Below, piece by piece: positions 176 through 15,690 of a stretch of 64,000 nucleotides of DNA (positions are counted from its first letter, which is position 1; every line of letters begins with the position of its first letter). Source of the stretch: an uncultured delta proteobacterium (lineage in GTDB: Bacteria > Desulfobacterota > Binatia > DP-6); NCBI GenBank assembly GCA_963815115.1, contig CAWFFN010000009.1, positions 352,001 to 416,000 on the forward strand, given 5' to 3'. The notes below the pieces were generated by a model that worked only from the letters and a program-made list of their open reading frames with translations, had not been told where the DNA came from and ran no database searches. The translations under genes and the position numbers were made by a program.

Positions 176-679
176 TTAGCGCGACTCCAGCTTCTTCAAG
201 ATGGTCGTGATTTTGACCGCGATCGCCCGATCTGTGGCGTTCGCTCGATCTCCGCGCGCCTTCGTGAGGATCGTGTTGACGCCGAGGACGCGGCCATCGC
301 TGCCTACCAGCGGCCCGCCGCTGCTTCCCGCAGCGATCAAAGCATCGTGGACAATCACCACCTCGTTCACAGCGTGGACCGTGCCCGTAGACGCCGCGAC
401 AACGTCGCGGCCCTGGGGGAAGCCAATTGCTGTCACCCCTTCACCCTCCGTGATAGGCCCTTCACGAACTGGCAATGGTTTCGCTTTCACCGGTGACTGA
501 AGAACGGCGAAGTCCAAGTCTCGATCCACATAGATGACCGTCGCGATCACGCCGGCTCCCTGCCCAGATGACAGACGGGCGCTGGAAGCACCAGCAAGGA
601 CGTGAGCGTTGGTGGCGACTAGGGCGTCCGTGACGAAGAATCCCGATCCGATCGTCTTGCCCGTGTCGATGCGCACTAG
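176..679 (-). pseudogene. Trypsin-like (S1C) serine protease, 5'-truncated at the 90-bp module
   Basis: GSGFFV, ATNAHV (His), DFAVL (Asp) and GSSGGPLV (Ser) motifs. The frame upstream runs into the repeat module and IS. Confidence 0.8.
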
Positions 680-769
680 CTGATAGGCACGACGAAGGGC
701 CTTTTGCCGCGGAGGCTTACAGAACGCCCCATCCCGGACCTTCGCCGCATTTTCGCCCGCTCCGTAACA
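680..769. repeat. 90-bp module R, copy 1
   Basis: ctgataggcac...ctccgtaaca. Identical at 14038-14127 and 15601-15690, diverged inverted copy at 5258-5344. Confidence 0.95.
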
Positions 770-771
770 AG

Positions 772-985
772 TTCCCACCGACCCCGGGGGTCGACCCGCG
801 ATGGAGGAAACTGGTACGGCGCCGCTGCCGGCACCGAGGTCGAGCAATGTCTGGTGCGCGAAGCCCGCTAACAAGTTGGACCCGACGTCCCGTGCGCACC
901 CGTGATTGTCGCCACGGACCGCGCGGTCCGCGAGCACGCTTGGTAGACTGCTGCCCCCAGGGACGTCACGCCGGCAGAACGGGAG
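772..985 (+). ncRNA. Putative bridge RNA region of IS110
   Basis: Hairpin-rich non-coding region (e.g. cacggaccgcgcggtccg, ctgcc...ggcag). Contains CTAACAAG (868-875) and CTTGGTAG (939-946), which match the two junctions. Transcript limits and strand are inferred. Confidence 0.65.
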
Positions 986-988
986 GAC

Positions 989-2221
989 GTGACGATGGAG
1001 GTCATCCATGCCCAGTGCGCGGGGCTCGACGTACACAAGCAGACCGTGGTGGCCTGCGTGCGGATCACGGGCGCGGGGGGCGTGCGGCGCGAGGTGCGGA
1101 CGTTTGCGACGACCGCCGCCGAGCTGCTGGCCTTGCAGGAGTGGCTGGTGGCCGCCGGCTGCACCCATGCCGTGCTGGAGTCGACGGGCGTCTACTGGAA
1201 ACCCGTGTGGCACGTGCTCGAGGACCACCTGACCCTCGTGCTGGCCAACGCGACGGCGGTGCGCAATCTGCCCGGGCGCAAGAGCGACGTGAGCGACGCG
1301 CAGTGGCTCGCGGATCTGCTCGCCCATGGGCTGGTGCGCGGCAGCTTCGTGCCGCCCGCGCCGATTCAGGCGTTGCGCGAGCTGACGCGGACGCGCAAGC
1401 AGCTCGGGCGGGAGGTCACCGCCCACAGTCAGCGGATCGAGAAGGTGCTGGAGAGCGCGGACGTGAAGCTCGCCGCGGTGCTCCGCCCGCTGCTCGGCGT
1501 CAGCGGGCGGGCGATCATCGCGGCCCTGGCGGCGGGCGAAACCGATCCCGAGCGCCTCGTGGCGTTAGCCCACCCGCGGCTGCGGCCGAAGCGGGCCGCG
1601 CTGCGGGCCGCGCTGCCCGGGCACGTCCGGCCGCATCATCGCGTCTTGCTGGGTCAGCACCTGCGGGTGGTCGAGACGCTGCGGGCGACGATCGCGGAGC
1701 TGGATGCCGCGATCGGGGCCGCCGTCGCCCCGTATCGCGCCGCCGTCGACCACCTCGTGACGATGCCCGGCGTGAGCACGACGGCGGCGCAGATCCTGGT
1801 CGCGGAGATCGGCACGGACATGAGCCGCTTCCCCAGCGCGGGGCATCTCGTCTCCTGGGCGGGGCTGTGTCCGCGCCAGGACGCGAGTGCGGGCAAGCAC
1901 CGCTCCACGCGCCTCCGCAAGGGGGCGCCGTGGCTCAAGCCCGTGCTCATTCAGGGCGCGTGGGCAGCGGTGCGAGGCCGCGAGGGCTACCTCCGCACCC
2001 AGTTCCTGCGCCTCAAGCATCGCCGCGGTCCGATGAAGGCCATCGTCGCGGTGGCCGCCTCCATGCTCACCGCCGCCTATTACATGCTGCGCGACGACCA
2101 AGACTATCACGACCTCGGGGCCGCCCACTTCCAGCGCGGCGACCACAACCACCTCGTCGCCGGACTCACCCGCCGCCTCCACCACCTCGGTTACGAGGTC
2201 ACGCTCCGCCCCGCCGCCTGA
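989..2221 (+). CDS. IS110-family DEDD transposase/recombinase
   Basis: GLDVHK, LESTG and KSDVSDA (DEDD RuvC-like); MPGV...AEIG and GLCPRQDASAGK (catalytic Ser region). Confidence 0.97.
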   Translation: MTMEVIHAQCAGLDVHKQTVVACVRITGAGGVRREVRTFATTAAELLALQEWLVAAGCTHAVLESTGVYWKPVWHVLEDHLTLVLANATAVRNLPGRKSDVSDAQWLADLLAHGLVRGSFVPPAPIQALRELTRTRKQLGREVTAHSQRIEKVLESADVKLAAVLRPLLGVSGRAIIAALAAGETDPERLVALAHPRLRPKRAALRAALPGHVRPHHRVLLGQHLRVVETLRATIAELDAAIGAAVAPYRAAVDHLVTMPGVSTTAAQILVAEIGTDMSRFPSAGHLVSWAGLCPRQDASAGKHRSTRLRKGAPWLKPVLIQGAWAAVRGREGYLRTQFLRLKHRRGPMKAIVAVAASMLTAAYYMLRDDQDYHDLGAAHFQRGDHNHLVAGLTRRLHHLGYEVTLRPAA

Positions 2222-2250
2222 CGCCGCGTACCGAGCGAGTTACTTGGTAG

Positions 2251-3226
2251 AAGCGCGGGTCGCGCATCCCGTCCTTGCCGCCCATCGCTTCGAGGTCCTT
2301 CCTCCAGCTCTTCCCGTAGGGCGGGTTGGCGAGCATGAAGTCGAACTCTTGGGCGGGGAAGGCGTCATGCGACAGCGTGGACCACTCCGCGCCGCCGACG
2401 ATGTGATCGGCGCTCTCGCCTTCGCCTTTGAGCAGCATGTCCGCCTTGCAGACGGCGTACGTCTCGGGGTTGATCTCCTGACCGTAGAGCAGGCACTTGA
2501 CCACTTGGTCGTGCTTCGCGGCGATTGCCGTGAGCGTCTCCTCGCCCACGGTGAGCATGCCGCCGGTGCCGCAGGCACAGTCGTAGAGCAAGTATGTGCC
2601 GGACTTGATCTCCGCCTCGATGGGCAGGAACACGAGGTTCGCCATGAGGCGCACAGCGTCGCGCGGCGTCCAGTGCTCGCCCGCCTCCTCGTTGTTCTCC
2701 TCGTTGAACCGGCGGACCAGCTCCTCGAAGACCGTGCCCATCGCGTGGTTGTCGATGCCCGCCGGCGAGAGGTCGATCGTCGGGTCGAGGAACTTGTTGA
2801 TCAGCGTGCCGATGGCGTCGGCTTTGGAGAGCGTCTGGAGCTGATTGCGGAACTTGAAGTTGTCGAGGATGTCCTGAACGTTTGGCGAGAACCCGTTGAG
2901 GTAGTCCTCGAAGTCGGCGAGCAGCTGCTGCTGGCTGCCACGGGACTTGAGGTCACGCAGCGTGAACTTCGAGGTGTTGTAAAAGGCTTGGCCGGCAGCG
3001 TCGCAGAGCGCGGCGCGCTGCTCGGTGATGCGCGCCTCGTCGAGCATCTTCTTGGTGGCGAGCACCTGTGGCTTGGGGTCGGTTCGAGGACCGCGTCCAT
3101 ACGCCGGATGACGCACATCGGCAGGATCACATCGGGGTACTTGCCGCGTCTGAAAAGGTCGCGCAGGACGTCGTCGGCGATGCCCCAGATGAACGAGACG
3201 ATTTTGTTGTGGGTCGCTTGGTCCAT
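2251..3226 (-). pseudogene. hsdM: Type I restriction-modification methyltransferase, N-terminal half, truncated by IS110 and frameshifted near 3080
   Basis: IVSFIWGIADDVLRD, AGEHWTPRD, YDCACGTGGML, YGQEIN and NPPY motifs. Ends at RDPRF at the IS junction. Confidence 0.92.
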
Positions 3227-3699
3227 TCTGGCGTTCGCCCTCCCTCAGTACCCGCGGCGCGGCGCACTCATCTCGCGGGACTGCGCGACGCTCAAGACCT
3301 TCACGTTCGCGTGCACATTCGCCAGCAGTCGCTTCAACCTATCGGTGAGGTGCGTGTTGGCGAAGAGGACGGCTGGCTTGCTGTAGTCGTCGGGGCGGTG
3401 CCGCGGAGCACGCTTGCCAAGGCGGCCGCGAGGTCTTGGTCGCGCGTGCTGCCGCGCAGCACGTCGTTGCGAGGGGTGCAGAGGTCGAAGAGGGATTTCA
3501 CGCGTCCGCGCCTCCGTGGCGACCGACGCGGTTGGGGTGCGTAACAAGTCGCCGCAGCGCTGCTCGCGAACCTCTGCGGCCCATCGCCGCGGGTAGTACT
3601 GTCCGTGCCGGTACGCAGTCAACAAGGGCCGCCGACAGGCACCGATAGGCAGCGTGGTCCACGCCAAGACCGGCTCAGGCGATCCCGAGATCGGTTCGT

Positions 3700-4254
3700 C
3701 CACCACGGAGCGCACCGAAGCCGTGCGGCTGCTCAAGACGTTGCGCCGCCGGGGCTTCCGCCCCACCACGGTCGGCGGGGACAAGGCCTACGACACGGAG
3801 CACTTCGTCGAGGACGTGCGCGCGCTCGGCATCGCGCCGCACGTGGCGCAGAACATCACCAAGTATCGCGGCTCGCGGATCGATGCGCGCACGACCCGAC
3901 ATGCCGGTTACACGGTGAGTCAGTGGTGTCGGAAGCGGGTCGAGGAAATCTTCGGCTGGGGCAAGACCATCGGCGGCCTGCGGAAGACCCGCTACCGCGG
4001 CCGCGAGCGCACGGGGCTGTGGGCGTACCTCGTAGGGAGCGCGTACAACCTGCTCCGCATGGCGAAGCTGCTCCCGGAGACCGCGGTCACATGACGATGC
4101 GGCGTCGACAACGCGTCCCTCACCGCGCCCGCCGCCGCCCAACAGGACGGCGAGGGAACCCGTCTCCCGATCTCGGCCGCCGCTGACCGATCCGAGAAGG
4201 AGAGCCAGCCACATGGAACGAGTCGCCATCACCGATTCTTCAGCATCCTGCTAG
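3700..4254 (+). mobile_element. IS5-family remnant: C-terminal transposase (to 4094) plus right end ending in CTAG
   Basis: GGDKAYDT, PHVAQN, RKRVEEIFGWGK motifs; ttcagcatcctg-CTAG terminus. Confidence 0.8.
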
Positions 4255-5053: not shown

Positions 5054-5256
5054 TTCACGCGGGTTTCTTGCGCGACTTTCTCACGGATGATTTGCCCGCA
5101 TGATTCACGCGAGTTTCTCCCACGACGTTCTCACGGATGATTTGCCCGCATGATTCACGCGAGTCTCTGCCGCGACGTTCTCACGGATGATTTGCCCGCA
5201 TGATTCACGCGAGTCTCTGCCGCGACGTTCTCACGCATGATTTGCCCGCATGATTC
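5054..5256. repeat. Tandem repeat, 4 x 50 bp
   Basis: Unit ttcacgcgagtctctgccgcgacgttctcacggatgatttgcccgcatga starts at 5054, 5104, 5154 and 5204. Confidence 0.95.
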
Positions 5257-5257
5257 T

Positions 5258-5344
5258 TGTTACGGAGCGGGCGACAATGCGGCGAAGGTCCGGGATGGGG
5301 CGTTCCGTAAACCTTCGCAAAACCCCGTTCATCGCTCCTATCGG
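5258..5344 (-). repeat. 90-bp module R, diverged inverted copy
   Basis: Reverse complement ccgataggagc...ttacggaacgccccatcccggaccttcgccgcattgtcgcccgctccgtaaca-AG. Same two endpoints as the other copies. Confidence 0.9.
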
Positions 5345-13790: not shown

Positions 13791-14037
13791 GACAGTTGCC
13801 TGACGCAGACCCAGCGTCGCTTACTGCGACCTGCCACTTGTGTCGTTCCTGTTTGGGCTCGGGAGCGCGGTCGGCATCACGTCGATCGCGGCGGGTCTGG
13901 CGTGAAGTGGCAGCGGATCGGACTGTCGCTTCTACCCGCGTGCGACGTGCCAGTCGCGCCGGTCGCACGGGCCGAGGAGGGTACGCGCCGACTCCTCGCG
14001 TAGGGCGGCGCGCGGCGCACGTTGCTGGGACTCGTAG

Positions 14038-14127
14038 CTGATAGGCACGACGAAGGGCCTTTTGCCGCGGAGGCTTACAGAACGCCCCATCCCGGACCTT
14101 CGCCGCATTTTCGCCCGCTCCGTAACA
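14038..14127. repeat. 90-bp module R, copy 2
   Basis: Identical to 680-769. Confidence 0.95.
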
Positions 14128-15600
14128 AGTTCCCACCGACCCCGGGGGTCGACCCGCGATGGAGGAAACTGGTACGGCGCCGCTGCCGGCACGAGGTCGA
14201 GCAATGTCTGGTGCGCGAAGCCCGCTAACAAGTTGGACCCGACGTCCCGTGCGCACCCGTGATTGTCGCCACGGACCGCGCGGTCCGCGAGCACGCTTGG
14301 TAGACTGCTGCCCCAGGGACGTCACGCCGGCAGAAGGGAGGACGTGACGATGGAGGTCATCCATGCCCAGTGCGCGGGGCTCGACGTACACAAGCAGACC
14401 GTGGTGGCCTGCGTGCGGATCACGGGCGCGGGGGGCGTGCGGCGCGAGGTGCGGACGTTTGCGACGACCGCCGCCGAGCTGCTGGCCTTGCAGGAGTGGC
14501 TGGTGGCCGCCGGCTGCACCCATGCCGTGCTGGAGTCGACGGGCGTCTACTGGAAACCCGTGTGGCACGTGCTCGAGGACCACCTGACCCTCGTGCTGGC
14601 CAACGCGACGGCGGTGCGCAATCTGCCCGGGCGCAAGAGCGACGTGAGCGACGCGCAGTGGCTCGCGGACGCTCGCCCATGGGCTGGTGCGCGGCAGCTT
14701 CGTGCCGCCCGCGCCGATTCAGGCGTTGCGCGAGCTGACGCGGACGCGCAAGCAGCTCGGGCGGGAGGTCACCGCCCACAGTCAGCGGATCGAGAAGGTG
14801 CTGGAGAGCGCGGACGTGAAGCTCGCCGCGGTGCTCCGCCCGCTGCTCGGCGTCAGCGGGCGGGCATCATCGCGGCCCTGGCGGCGGGCGAAACCGATCC
14901 CGAGCGCCTCGTGGCGTTAGCCCACCCGCGGCTGCGGCCGAAGCGGGCCGCGCTGCGGGCCGCGCTGCCCGGGCACGTCCGGCCGCATCATCGCGTCTTG
15001 CTGGGTCAGCACCTGCGGGTGGTCGAGACGCTGCGGGCGACGATCGCGGAGCTGGATGCCGCGATCGGGGCCGCCGTCGCCCCGTATCGCGCCGCCGTCG
15101 ACCACCTCGTGACGATGCCCGGCGTGAGCACGACGGCGGCGCAGATCCTGGTCGCGGAGATCGGCACGGACATGAGCCGCTTCCCCAGCGCGGGGCATCT
15201 CGTCTCCTGGGCGGGGCTGTGTCCGCGCCAGGACGCGAGTGCGGGCAAGCACCGCTCCACGCGCCTCCGCAAGGGGGCGCCGTGGCTCAAGCCCGTGCTC
15301 ATTCAGGGCGCGTGGGCAGCGGTGCGAGGCCGCGAGGGCTACCTGCGCACCCAGTTCCTGCGCCTCAAGCATCGCCGCGGTCCGATGAAGGCCATCGTCG
15401 CGGTGGCCGCCTCCATGCTCACCGCCGCCTATTACATGCTGCGCGACGACCAAGACTATCACGACCTCGGGGCCGCCCACTTCCAGCGCGGCGACCACAA
15501 CCACCTCGTCGCCGGACTCACCCGCCGCCTCCACCACCTCGGTTACGAGGTCACGCTCCGCCCCGCCGCTGACGCCGCGTACGAGCGAGTTACTTGGTAG
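14128..15600 (+). mobile_element. IS110-family element, copy 2; transposase (~14344-15572) carries small deletions
   Basis: Near-identical to copy 1, with indels near 14670, 14865 and 15570. Confidence 0.92.
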
Positions 15601-15690
15601 CTGATAGGCACGACGAAGGGCCTTTTGCCGCGGAGGCTTACAGAACGCCCCATCCCGGACCTTCGCCGCATTTTCGCCCGCTCCGTAACA
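15601..15690. repeat. 90-bp module R, copy 3, directly after the IS110 right end
   Basis: ttacttggtag|ctgataggca...ctccgtaaca|gggagg. Confidence 0.95.

Follow-up and report, generated by a model that had tools for sequence, protein, structure and literature searches.

A predicted bridge RNA in mirrored layout probably guides an IS110-family element to the end of a genus-restricted repeat

The insertion sequence described here very probably picks its insertion site by means of a bridge RNA from its own 5' non-coding end (about 800-980), which would be transcribed together with the recombinase gene. We conclude that the bridge RNA of this element is real and that it is a variant of the known bridge-RNA mechanism in a mirrored layout. 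What appears new, judging from the sequences of the element and its relatives, is that each strong guide occupies the 3' side of its loop and reads the sense strand, with the RNA upstream of the gene; that handshake-like bases seem to follow the target guide; and that a conserved GAAAC near the left end is the complement, with compensatory changes, of a GTTTC near the right end.

We analysed a 64,000-nucleotide stretch of DNA (the window), in which an IS110-family insertion sequence occupies 772-2250; the second AG core (2249-2250) is assigned to its right end. The element, its target and its gene are laid out as follows:

679-771, plus strand: module R, a 91-93-bp repeat, whose last bases TAACA (765-769) and AG (770-771) are the left target and the core
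772-2250, plus strand: the IS110-family insertion sequence, present in the genome in four full copies at 99-100% identity, with flanks that diverge exactly at these positions
995-2221, plus strand: recombinase (transposase) gene, 408 amino acids, from Pfam and NCBIfam matches
2239-2250, plus strand: right end, consisting of GTTAC (2239-2243), programmable TTGGT (2244-2248) and core AG (2249-2250)
14130-15600, plus strand: second copy of the element in the window, directly 3' of another module R

The boundaries follow from comparison of the copies. All eight right ends (four full copies and four right-end fragments) stop at ...CTTGGTAG, that is, at ...TAG, and their flanks differ beyond this point; the right flank is not conserved among the eight insertions. 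The left ends of all four full copies, and of one left-end fragment with another flank, begin after ...GTAACAAG. These ends agree with the junction coordinates given in a first-pass annotation of this DNA. The left flanks end in ...AAG, and AG stands at both junctions of the element. The non-coding ends measure 223 nt on the left and 29 nt past the stop codon on the right. The copy at 14130-15600 has suffered single-base deletions, and its recombinase frame is not intact. The element shows the traits of IS110 elements: it has no terminal inverted repeats, no multi-base target duplication and a short core at both junctions, and its insertion is specific for both site and orientation, the orientation at the end of module R being identical in 4/4 full copies. 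A head-to-tail junction (right end, single AG, left end), which had been predicted from the sequence, is present in a DNA contig of a close relative and at loci L090 and L112; these contigs come from relatives and not from the exact element, and a circle and a tandem copy look alike in them. Tandem and nested copies do occur (L031, L054, L090, L112).

The recombinase matches DEDD_Tnp_IS110 (PF01548) at 87.3 bits (cut-off 29) and Transposase_20 (PF02371) at 76.8 bits (cut-off 21.3) in Pfam, as well as the NCBIfam model NF033542, 'IS110 family RNA-guided transposase', at 257.8 bits against a cut-off of 140. It is about 25% identical to the recombinase of ISEc21, which is IS110-type like IS621, and its GLDVHK, LESTG, KSDVSDA and SAGK motifs, which carry the D, E, D, D and S positions, line up with their equivalents in ISEc21. 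D12, E62, D98, D101 and S298 are invariant in five relatives, and we infer that they are the counterparts of the residues named for IS621 in the published text. Among the plasmid matches to the recombinase, which we looked at for placement in the IS110 or IS1111 clade, almost none carries a specific name.

The target of the element is the end of module R, a repeat restricted to the genus. Upstream of all four full copies 93 bp of module R are identical, and the flanks diverge beyond it; we collected 18 copies of module R with their flanks, and the empty ones end in GTAACA followed by AG or a variant. Bridge-RNA targeting would explain why every copy of the element sits at the end of module R. 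We considered two other identities for the repeat; the first was rejected, and the second found no support. As an integron attC it would form an end-to-end hairpin, and none is found on either strand; the two integron integrases above the cut-off (C9:616301 and C5:519851) lie far from the R clusters. As a mini-element that duplicates two bases it would have matching bases before and after, and these do not match copy by copy.

Guide-like segments lie in the 5' non-coding end of the element, together with the predicted structure that holds them:

779-793, plus strand: hairpin H1 near the left end, with three pairs (779-781/791-793)
807-811, plus strand: conserved GAAAC, the complement of GTTTC in the sub-terminal part of the right end
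825-977, plus strand: core of the bridge RNA, from alignment covariation, with an outer stem (825-830/972-977) that encloses the target and donor loops
838-882, plus strand: target-binding loop, closed by GGUC 838-841/GACC 879-882, with an inner hairpin (852-857/863-867)
847-852, antisense, 5' side of the target loop: tentative candidate for a right-target guide
869-875, sense, 3' side of the target loop: left-target guide TAACA (869-873) plus core AG (874-875), copying the left flank and core
876-877, plus strand: TT, identical to the first two bases of the element and resembling a handshake guide
885-966, plus strand: donor-binding loop, with a stem (885-890/961-966) and an inner hairpin (917-919/926-928)
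939-946, sense, 3' side of the donor loop: left-donor guide C plus TTGGT (939-944) and core AG (945-946), copying the right end and core

The first-pass annotation had read two internal repeats of the junctions as guides of a bridge RNA with an AG core, aimed at the end of module R. Indeed, CTTGGTAG is identical at 939-946 and 2243-2250, CTAACAAG at 868-875 fits GTAACAAG at 764-771 in 7/8 positions, and TAACAAGTT occurs without mismatch at 765-773 and 869-877. Each 8-mer ends in AG and lies just 3' of a hairpin, nearly invariant in one case (852-867) and covarying in the other (917-928). Within the 64-kb window, CTTGGTAG is found four times against 0.33 expected from shuffles, and TAACAAGTT four times against 0.02; these occurrences are the two sites in each of two element copies.

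The covariation check that the annotation had proposed came out in favor of its reading. We aligned 73 homologous left ends, 69 of which differ by more than 10%, and in 73/73 both guide columns end in AG. The left guide 8-mer fits the junction of its own element in at least 7/8 positions in 62/73 cases, as compared with 123/5202 pairings with the guides of other elements; for the right guide 8-mer, the same threshold is reached in 65/72 cases and in 601/5114 such pairings. Columns 869-873 covary with the element's own left flank at -7 to -3 (58-65/65); these counts are inflated because each boundary was placed where the guide fitted best, up to 8 bases from its position in the alignment, and the independent figures are those of the 8-mer fits just given. 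Columns 940-944 covary with the element's own right end at -7 to -3 (47-60/60). As whole loop segments, 869-875 go with -7 to -1 of the left flank and 939-946 with -8 to -1 of the right end. The guide columns thus follow the junctions of their own elements in homologs. The layout recurs, with other guides, in a second IS110 lineage of this genome (L005).

The two bases after the left-target guide, 876-877, equal the first two bases of the element in 58/65 sequences (53 TT, 3 TC and 2 TG), and the second of them matches in 63/65 against 47 expected. After the donor guide there is no such signal; 947-948 match positions 1-2 of the right flank in 16 and 15 of 56 elements. Isolated hits in single columns with no support from neighbors were set aside as noise: left flank -3 with column 903 and -4 with 831, element position 5 with 911, and right end -9 with 886 and 895. 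A possible antisense guide to the left flank at -12 to -8 was likewise dismissed; UGGAG at 802-806 fits the CTCCG of this element and not the other homologs, and with no covariation the match is taken as chance.

The 223-nt 5' non-coding end folds into a two-loop RNA, as predicted from covariation in the alignment. The whole structure has seven helices, in which 17/29 pairs show changes on both sides; 93.8% of cells are paired, as compared with 30-49% when the partners are slid, and the covariation score of 0.384 (controls, 0.07-0.105) was reached in 0/500 shuffles. Changes on both sides are seen in 4/5 pairs of the outer stem, in up to 31 sequences, in 6/6 pairs of the donor-loop stem (2-30 sequences each, 99.5% paired) and in all three pairs of H1 (10-14 sequences each); the inner hairpin of the donor loop covaries in 3/3 pairs. 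The pairs of the target loop are kept in 98-100% of sequences and are nearly invariant, so that they speak for conservation and not for covariation. G-U cells outnumber A-C cells by 100 to 22 (two nearly fixed G-U pairs left out), an excess that marks the plus strand as the one transcribed. The structure comes from the alignment only; the minimum-free-energy fold of the single sequence is no better than that of shuffles (z 0.98). A search of region 500-2600 against Rfam 15 gave no credible match, the best being Methylosinus-1 on the minus strand (E 0.29, 17.6 bits, gathering score 145). Metatranscriptome contigs of relatives cover 761-950 and 811-1020; they may hold DNA. The 3' strand of the outer stem, 972-977, adjoins the ribosome-binding site and the start codon at 995.

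The first-pass annotation had found no convincing second-arm guides. This holds for the right-donor arm: in a scan of every left-end column against element positions 1-12, in sense and antisense, nothing emerged except self-matches and column 877. Element positions 1-2 are matched by 876-877 in the target loop, and positions 3-12 have no covarying column outside the left end itself. Candidates picked by eye, namely GGAGGAAACT at 803-812, the ATTGT region at 903-909, and UUGGUGC against CACC, were rejected, as they showed no covariation or were conserved on both sides. It holds less well for the right-target arm, for which a weak, tentative candidate emerged at 847-852, where the antisense diagonal with the right flank is strongest. 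Pairing at position 1 is seen in 34/56 elements versus 39% of non-cognate pairings, and at all four positions in 7/56 versus 3.3%, an enrichment of roughly two- to fourfold. The family consensus of this segment ends in CT, the complement of the core, which is present in 34/65 sequences, and this element has TC at these positions; three differences from a 93%-identical relative fall inside 847-852.

The family right end reads G-T/C-T-T-C, five variable bases and AG in 60/60 homologs, and its first five bases have a partner near the left end. The GAAAC region and the right end are perfectly complementary in 57/60 homologs (50 GAAAC/GTTTC, 6 GAAGC/GCTTC and 1 GAAAG/CTTTC), with antisense covariation in 59/60 and compensatory changes. 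In this element GTTAC, not GTTTC, stands opposite GAAAC, which leaves one mismatch.

Could this be an ordinary bridge RNA of IS621 geometry, its mirroring a product of misassigned loop sides or strands and its full second arms simply missed? We consider this improbable. The weak antisense signal for the right flank on the other side of the target loop would suit it, as would an inner hairpin in that loop that is invariant and hence without covariation support, and the comparison of layouts covered the running text of published surveys. However, the inner hairpin has no bearing on the order of antisense 847-851 followed by sense 869-875, the donor guide is found inside a covarying stem, 3' of a hairpin that also covaries, and no other column covaries with the left end of the element. 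The same search on ISEc21 returned the opposite order, in agreement with the published passages.

It is very improbable that the internal 7-8-mers are DNA sites, copied from the junctions for binding or pairing by the recombinase, with no guide RNA involved. The matches are in sense orientation, and DNA-level repeats would look alike; yet the left flank is host DNA and still covaries with an internal segment across 65 diverged elements, and the helices carry compensatory changes and the excess of G-U over A-C cells. Moreover, relatives use such RNAs, according to the experiments described in the text of PMC11208160 and PMC11187229. A region that is a mere 5' untranslated leader controlling translation of the recombinase, its matches being chance or leftovers of nested insertions, is extremely improbable, even with 972-977 so close to the start codon and tandem or nested copies at the four loci named above: chance would produce only 0.33 and 0.02 occurrences per window, and the matches recur at fixed alignment columns with letters that differ from homolog to homolog.

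In the bridge-RNA reading that we prefer, an outer stem would enclose the target loop and then the donor loop. The target-loop guide, 869-875, would read the left flank (the end of module R) and the core, with 876-877 matching the first bases of the element; in the donor loop, C-TTGGT-AG at 939-946 would stand for the right end and the core. By analogy with relatives, we infer that the element produces this RNA, that the recombinase binds it and that it brings a circular donor and the target together. The core reads CT on the other DNA strand, and seen from there the layout would equal that of IS621; the 3'-side guides would pair with this CT-bearing strand and span the junction. With the 3'-side guides on the CT strand, the recombination site would thus be inverted relative to the RNA and recombinase genes as compared with IS621 and ISEc21.

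The family is large and widespread in soil; in a metagenome scan 575/600 candidate stretches encode relatives. Public metagenome records contain many relatives, and natural variation within the family reveals the guide code directly. For annotation, the ends of the element are fixed at 772-2250, and further landing sites become predictable. A possible but doubtful reading, to be taken as a whole, is that these elements represent a third layout of RNA-guided IS110 elements: the RNA would be upstream, as in IS621, the recombination site would be inverted, as implied by the strand order of IS1111 type, and each loop would hold about one programmable 5-base arm plus the core; both strands of the donor's right end would be recognised, the donor guide reading the bottom one and GAAAC the GTTTC of the top one; and the targets would have in common a fixed pyrimidine-C immediately beyond the guided bases. 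If true, the third layout would amount to a half-site bridge recombinase found in nature, whose programmable code is very short. The known bridge-RNA mechanism itself is unchanged by our finding.

The first-pass suspicion that the architecture may differ from that of IS621 was justified: the guides lie on the opposite sides of the loops and on the opposite strand compared with ISEc21 and IS621 as the published text describes them. The IS621 bridge RNA is 177 nt long and has guides of 7 bases plus core on the 5' side, and an inverted repeat of 2-3 bases flanks the donor, according to the text of PMC11208160 and PMC11208158. As in that description, our element has a predicted non-coding RNA upstream of a DEDD recombinase gene, at the left end, with a target loop followed by a donor loop; each guide includes a two-base core repeated at both junctions, extra bases that span the junction resemble handshake guides, the size (about 150-180 nt) is close to 177 nt, and the strand paired by the 3'-side guides carries a CT core. 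Unlike in IS621, the strong guides lie on the 3' side and in the recombinase-sense strand, which bears an AG core; 5 bases plus core are programmable here instead of 7 plus core; of the opposite arms, that of the target loop is weak and none was found in the donor loop; one outer stem encloses both loops; and in place of a repeat flanking the donor, the left end contains, 36-40 bases in, five bases complementary to the right end. The strong guides in our element are short and in sense orientation, each placed on the 3' side of its loop beyond the inner hairpin, and the IS621-type geometry of the IS110 group is absent; the polarity of the site is inverted, with the RNA still upstream.

In the control search, ISEc21 gave a sense match to the right end at 295 and antisense, junction-spanning matches at 228 and 319, a layout that agrees with the text of Durrant 2024 (PMC11208160) and Siddiquee 2024 (PMC11187229). 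Read by eye, ISEc21 also has a 6/7 sense match to the left flank near 207. Our element resembles the ISEc21 seekRNA in its upstream non-coding region, in short matches to both target strands within one small RNA and in a target that lies within another mobile element, as the text of PMC11187229 has it. In ISEc21, in contrast, the top-strand complement follows the bottom-strand (sense) match, an order that is reversed here (PMC11187229). The order found here is that of the IS1111-type elements ISEc11, ISKpn4 and ISPa11, in which the passages of PMC11187229 place the top-strand complement 5' of the bottom-strand match. The published text also describes for IS1111-type elements complementary sub-terminal sequences and insertion at the ends of other repeats or mobile elements, as we see here. 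In IS1111, however, that text puts the RNA downstream of the gene and gives sub-terminal inverted repeats of 11-13 bp, 7 and 3 bp from the ends; our element has its RNA upstream and a complement of 5 bp, whose distance from the element's ends is 7 bp on the right and 35 bp on the left. Our element has neither the downstream RNA nor the 11-13-bp repeats that define the IS1111 group. Rare IS1111 relatives with an upstream region, such as ISMtsp17, are mentioned in the text of PMC11187229. None of the papers covered by the literature search pairs 'bridge RNA' with 'AG core'.

Orientation-specific insertion at a fixed point of a repeat is also described for the REP-targeting ISPpu9 and ISPpu10 and for IS4321 and IS5075 at Tn21-type terminal repeats; the target here, unlike theirs, is the end of a genus-restricted repeat of 91-93 bp. 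RNA position and strand order, which are coupled in both described groups (IS110 and IS1111) as the published text presents them, are separated in this element; it also lends itself to a natural test of the order in which the strands are exchanged.

The recombinase, which carries DEDD_Tnp_IS110 and Transposase_20 domains, scores 257.8 bits in a profile search against NCBIfam NF033542; NCBI now names this family 'IS110 family RNA-guided transposase', which already says that this element is RNA-guided. In an alignment with the ISEc21 recombinase, the protein is 25% identical, with the GxDxHK, ExTG, KSDxxDA, and SxGK motifs in register. The element, its second copy, and the copies of module R, the repeat that ends directly to its left, are placed in the window as follows.

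Element and module R in the window
772-2250, + strand: insertion sequence, IS110 family (full copy)
995-2221, + strand: recombinase ORF, 408 aa
14130-15600: second full copy
679-771: module R
5170-5263, - strand: module R
14037-14129: module R
15600-15690: module R

The genome (G000, 12 contigs) holds four full copies at 99-100% identity, two of them outside the window, together with one left-end fragment and four right-end fragments. All eight right ends terminate in ...GAGTT(A/G)CTTGGTAG, and the sequence differs afterwards (aagcgc, acggcg, gcggcg, ctgata, tccggg, cccacc, agagag, aacccc). All four full copies begin after ...CTCCGTAACAAG, the final bases of the 93-bp module R, which is identical upstream of each of them; the DNA beyond it is unrelated. 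The left-end fragment, L008, has a different flank that has only TCCGTAACAAG in common with that of the full copies. Because right ends, left starts, and empty R copies diverge around it, AG is the sole boundary ambiguity; it is found once in the empty site and at both junctions when the site is occupied, and it is the core of IS110-type recombination.

The second copy in the window has single-base deletions in its left end (three over the 260 nt aligned) and a recombinase frame split into fragments of about 120 aa, and another R follows it directly; it is either a decaying copy or the product of assembly errors. To the right of the first copy, a type I restriction-modification methylase gene (HsdM_N and N6_Mtase; 2251-3116, - strand) breaks off against the element, past position 150 of a 311-position profile, and to the left lies an unrelated gene for a trypsin-like peptidase (176-760, - strand). 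Since the two flanks do not rebuild one gene, the sequence suggests that they arose by rearrangement between copies. Further right, within 3527-4094, a short DDE_Tnp_1 transposase ORF (146 aa) matches the profile end only; the motif GTAACAAG occurs again at 3541-3548, about 110 bp upstream of this ORF, in a context unlike R.

Module R, 91-93 bp long, was listed with its flanks in 18 copies, with clusters on contigs C9 (318-430 kb) and C5 (1376-1419 kb). Empty copies end in GTAACA followed by AG (or GG, GA, etc.) and diverge afterwards. R is present at low copy number in three of the four other genomes of the genus and in none of 26 others searched; two close relatives of the element in other assemblies, L029 and L034, also lie at R-like ends. 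The R variant with C at -14 from the junction adjoins the element in five of five copies, while the closest copies with A at -14 adjoin it in none of four, so that R and the element may be copied as a unit. Among 14 copies read, the bases preceding R are AG in eight and GG in five. A reading of R as attC-like was rejected: R has no hairpin fold, and it does not lie beside the genome's two integron-type integrase genes (C9:616301-617218 and C5:519851-520699), both far from the window, which score 431.7 and 389.3 bits against TIGR02249 (curated cut-off 265).

The first-pass annotation had proposed that the region upstream of the recombinase contains copies of both junctions, and on re-checking the sequence its coordinates and letters for these matches proved exact. 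CTTGGTAG occurs four times in the window against 0.33 expected, and TAACAAGTT four times against 0.02 expected; every occurrence is a junction or an internal site of the two copies in the window. The left-target guide (869-875, TAACA+AG) and the donor or right-end guide (939-946, C+TTGGT+AG) were then followed through homologs. A scan of species-representative genomes yielded seven loci with 56-91% protein identity, hosted by MAGs labelled delta proteobacterium, Polyangia, Acidobacteria, Gemmatimonadota, and Verrucomicrobiae, and by Delftia. A scan of metagenomes that used an aligned set of five proteins as its seed (A1; L033, whose frame is broken, was omitted) found 575 relatives among 600 candidate stretches, and the best 80 of the 575 (54-64% identity) were used. 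Of these 87 sequences (the window and 86 loci), the 73 with at least 285 nt upstream were aligned and the other 14 left out. Both guide columns end in AG in 73/73 aligned left ends.

For each locus we took the 8-mer of the guide column and its best ungapped match in the locus's own upstream or post-stop region, with the 8-mers of all other loci against the same regions as a control; this test is independent of the later placement of boundaries. The left guide matches at 7/8 or better in 62/73 cognate cases compared to 123/5202 non-cognate ones, and the right-end guide in 65/72 compared to 601/5114, the higher background arising because right ends share CTTnnTAG-like sequence. The covariation test proposed with the bridge RNA candidate thus bears it out: the guide columns follow their own junctions.

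To scan all columns against all junction positions, we set the left boundary at the best guide match lying no more than 8 bases from the aligned boundary (69/73 reach at least 6/8) and kept representatives with less than 90% left-end identity (69/73), of which 65 have a left boundary, 60 a right end, and 56 a usable right flank. Four clear diagonals emerge. Positions are counted back from the junction, with the core AG at -2 to -1. Left flank -7 to -3 matches 869-873 in sense (58, 65, 64, 65, and 65 of 65) and right end -7 to -3 matches 940-944 in sense (47, 60, 58, 60, and 60 of 60); these identity counts are inflated by the boundary setting, and the fair cognate figures are those of the guide test. 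The third diagonal, also in sense, joins element positions 1-2 to 876-877, and the fourth, antisense, joins right end -12 and -11 to 811 and 810 (59/60 each). Among the representatives, positions -8 and beyond do not track the guides. A second IS110 lineage in the same genome, L005, whose gene is 69% identical at the DNA level, shares this RNA layout, its guides reading CGATA-AG (flank GGATA-AG) and GTCCC-AG (right end GTACC-AG). On a genome contig, the left junction of L031 abuts the right end (GTTTC-TCTTT-AG) of a related IS110 element and fits L031's own guide at only 6/8, an example of insertion beside a relative's end.

RNAalifold on 65 left ends (A2) predicts a consensus structure, listed here in window coordinates.

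Consensus RNA structure
779-781/791-793, + strand: hairpin
825-830/972-977, + strand: outer stem
838-841/879-882, + strand: GGUC/GACC stem, enclosing hairpin 852-857/863-867
885-890/961-966, + strand: stem enclosing hairpins 896-898/907-909 (small, conserved) and 917-919/926-928 (variable)

When the 3' partners are slid by 1-3 columns, paired cells fall from 93.8% to 30-49%, cells changed on both sides from 232 to 44-60, and the covariation score from 0.384 to 0.067-0.105; the structure was derived from the same sequences, which gives it an advantage over the slid controls, chiefly for paired cells. None of 500 shuffles attained the observed covariation score. Both-side changes occur at 6/6 pairs of stem 885-890/961-966 and 4/5 pairs of the outer stem; the two target-loop helices are nearly invariant, and are therefore conserved, not proven by covariation. 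With two nearly fixed G-U pairs set aside, G-U cells outnumber A-C cells 100 to 22, so the folded molecule is the + strand, in the sense of the recombinase gene. Folded as a single sequence, the window copy gives an unremarkable structure, and Rfam 15 holds no family matching the element's RNA region. Relatives are represented in metatranscriptome contigs over 761-950 and 811-1020, which is no proof of transcription.

Columns 876-877 equal the element's first two bases in 58/65 (53 TT, 3 TC, 2 TG), and the second base matches in 63/65 against 47 expected; this is mostly joint conservation, with few covarying cases. For the two bases that follow the donor guide (947-948), matches to the right flank number 16/56 and 15/56, which is no signal. 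Against the right flank, the strongest antisense diagonal runs over 849, 848, 847, immediately 5' to a consensus CT (the core complement, 34/65) and to the inner hairpin, where the second target arm should be. Right-flank position 1 pairs in 34/56 (non-cognate 39%) and positions 1-4 all pair in 7/56 (non-cognate 3.3%). This right-target arm is tentative, and its signal would not hold up by itself after correction for the column pairs scanned. In this element's register TC stands instead of CT; UGUCU (848-852), shifted by one base, could pair, with wobbles, to 10/12 flank bases of the four full copies, and three of the positions at which this element differs from L008, the 93%-identical fragment, are in this segment. 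Scanning every column against the junction positions of the homologs gave no arm for the element's left end.

The antisense diagonal reflects GAAAC (807-811), which is reverse-complementary to the GTTTC just ahead of the right end's five programmable bases. The complement is perfect in 57/60 (GAAAC/GTTTC 50, GAAGC/GCTTC 6, GAAAG/CTTTC 1); the window's subgroup of two sequences has one mismatch (GAAAC/GTTAC), and one locus a deletion. It could be a sub-terminal inverted repeat in DNA; such repeats are described as short in IS110 and long in IS1111 elements in the text of PMC11208160 and PMC11187229. [quoted passage not shown] In the left flanks of 65 homologs, C stands at -8 in 44/65 and a pyrimidine at -9 in 51/65, a preference that parallels the invariant TC found equally far from the junction in the right end. 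Neither a guide column nor any other RNA column in the homolog set accounts for this preference, which may reflect a protein contact.

In a soil DNA run, a close relative's contig joins ...GACTTGGTAG directly to TTCCCACCGAT..., the right-to-left-end join that the first-pass annotation had predicted for a circle, and in L090 and L112 the right end and one AG are followed by the locus's own left end; circles and tandem copies look the same in such contigs. The run containing most of the stretch has a contig in which the right end leads straight into the start of R; the genome shows this arrangement too, beside the second window copy. In the metagenome contig L054, the right end and AG are followed by a target-guide stretch (CCCG, guide, AG, TT...), as if joined to the AG within GAGCCCG, a conserved motif, in the RNA gene of another copy; such a junction may stem from a deletion inside a tandem pair or from self-targeting.

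The use of bridge or seek RNAs by the IS110 family has been established since 2024 (PMC11208160, PMC11187229), and the text of Durrant et al (PMC11208160) gives a predicted bridge RNA for 85.7% of IS110 and 93.0% of IS1111 elements, so one is expected here. The loop order is target, then donor, as the text of PMC11208160 describes for IS621. Guide 869-875 is flanked by the target-loop inner hairpin and GACC; guide 939-946 follows the variable hairpin and precedes the 3' strand of the 885/966 stem. Both strong guides are thus on the 3' strands of their loops and are identical to recombinase-sense DNA, so they would pair with the bottom strand. In IS621, by the same account, 8-9 nt on the 5' side pair with the bottom strand and 4-7 nt on the 3' side with the top strand, so that the strong guide is on the opposite side. 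As a control we applied a similar match search to the IS110-type element ISEc21, whose seekRNA has been mapped experimentally, using coordinates from PMC11187229. It returned a sense right-end match at 295, antisense matches across the right and left junctions at 228 and 319, and, read by eye, a sense left-flank match (6/7) near 207; the loops therefore run sense first and antisense second, in agreement with the text of PMC11187229, whereas the order in our element is the reverse. IS1111-type seekRNAs, as that text describes them, have the top-strand complement 5' of the bottom-strand match, the same strand order as here, yet the RNA of our element is upstream of its gene.

Read on the other DNA strand, the family core is CT, as in IS621, and the 3'-side guides pair with the CT-bearing strand and extend into partner DNA, exactly as the right-target guide, core complement, and handshake guide are arranged in the text of Hiraizumi et al (PMC11208158). 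From this comparison we infer that the family uses standard chemistry and that its recombination site is inverted with respect to the genes for the RNA and the recombinase. An element with an upstream RNA and IS1111-like strand order was not found in the passages of published text covered, nor in a literature search for bridge RNAs with an AG core; the text of Siddiquee et al (PMC11187229) mentions rare IS1111 relatives with an upstream non-coding region. The combination may already be on record. RNA guidance itself is known; what may be new here is an RNA upstream of the gene combined with the strand order of IS1111-type seekRNAs.
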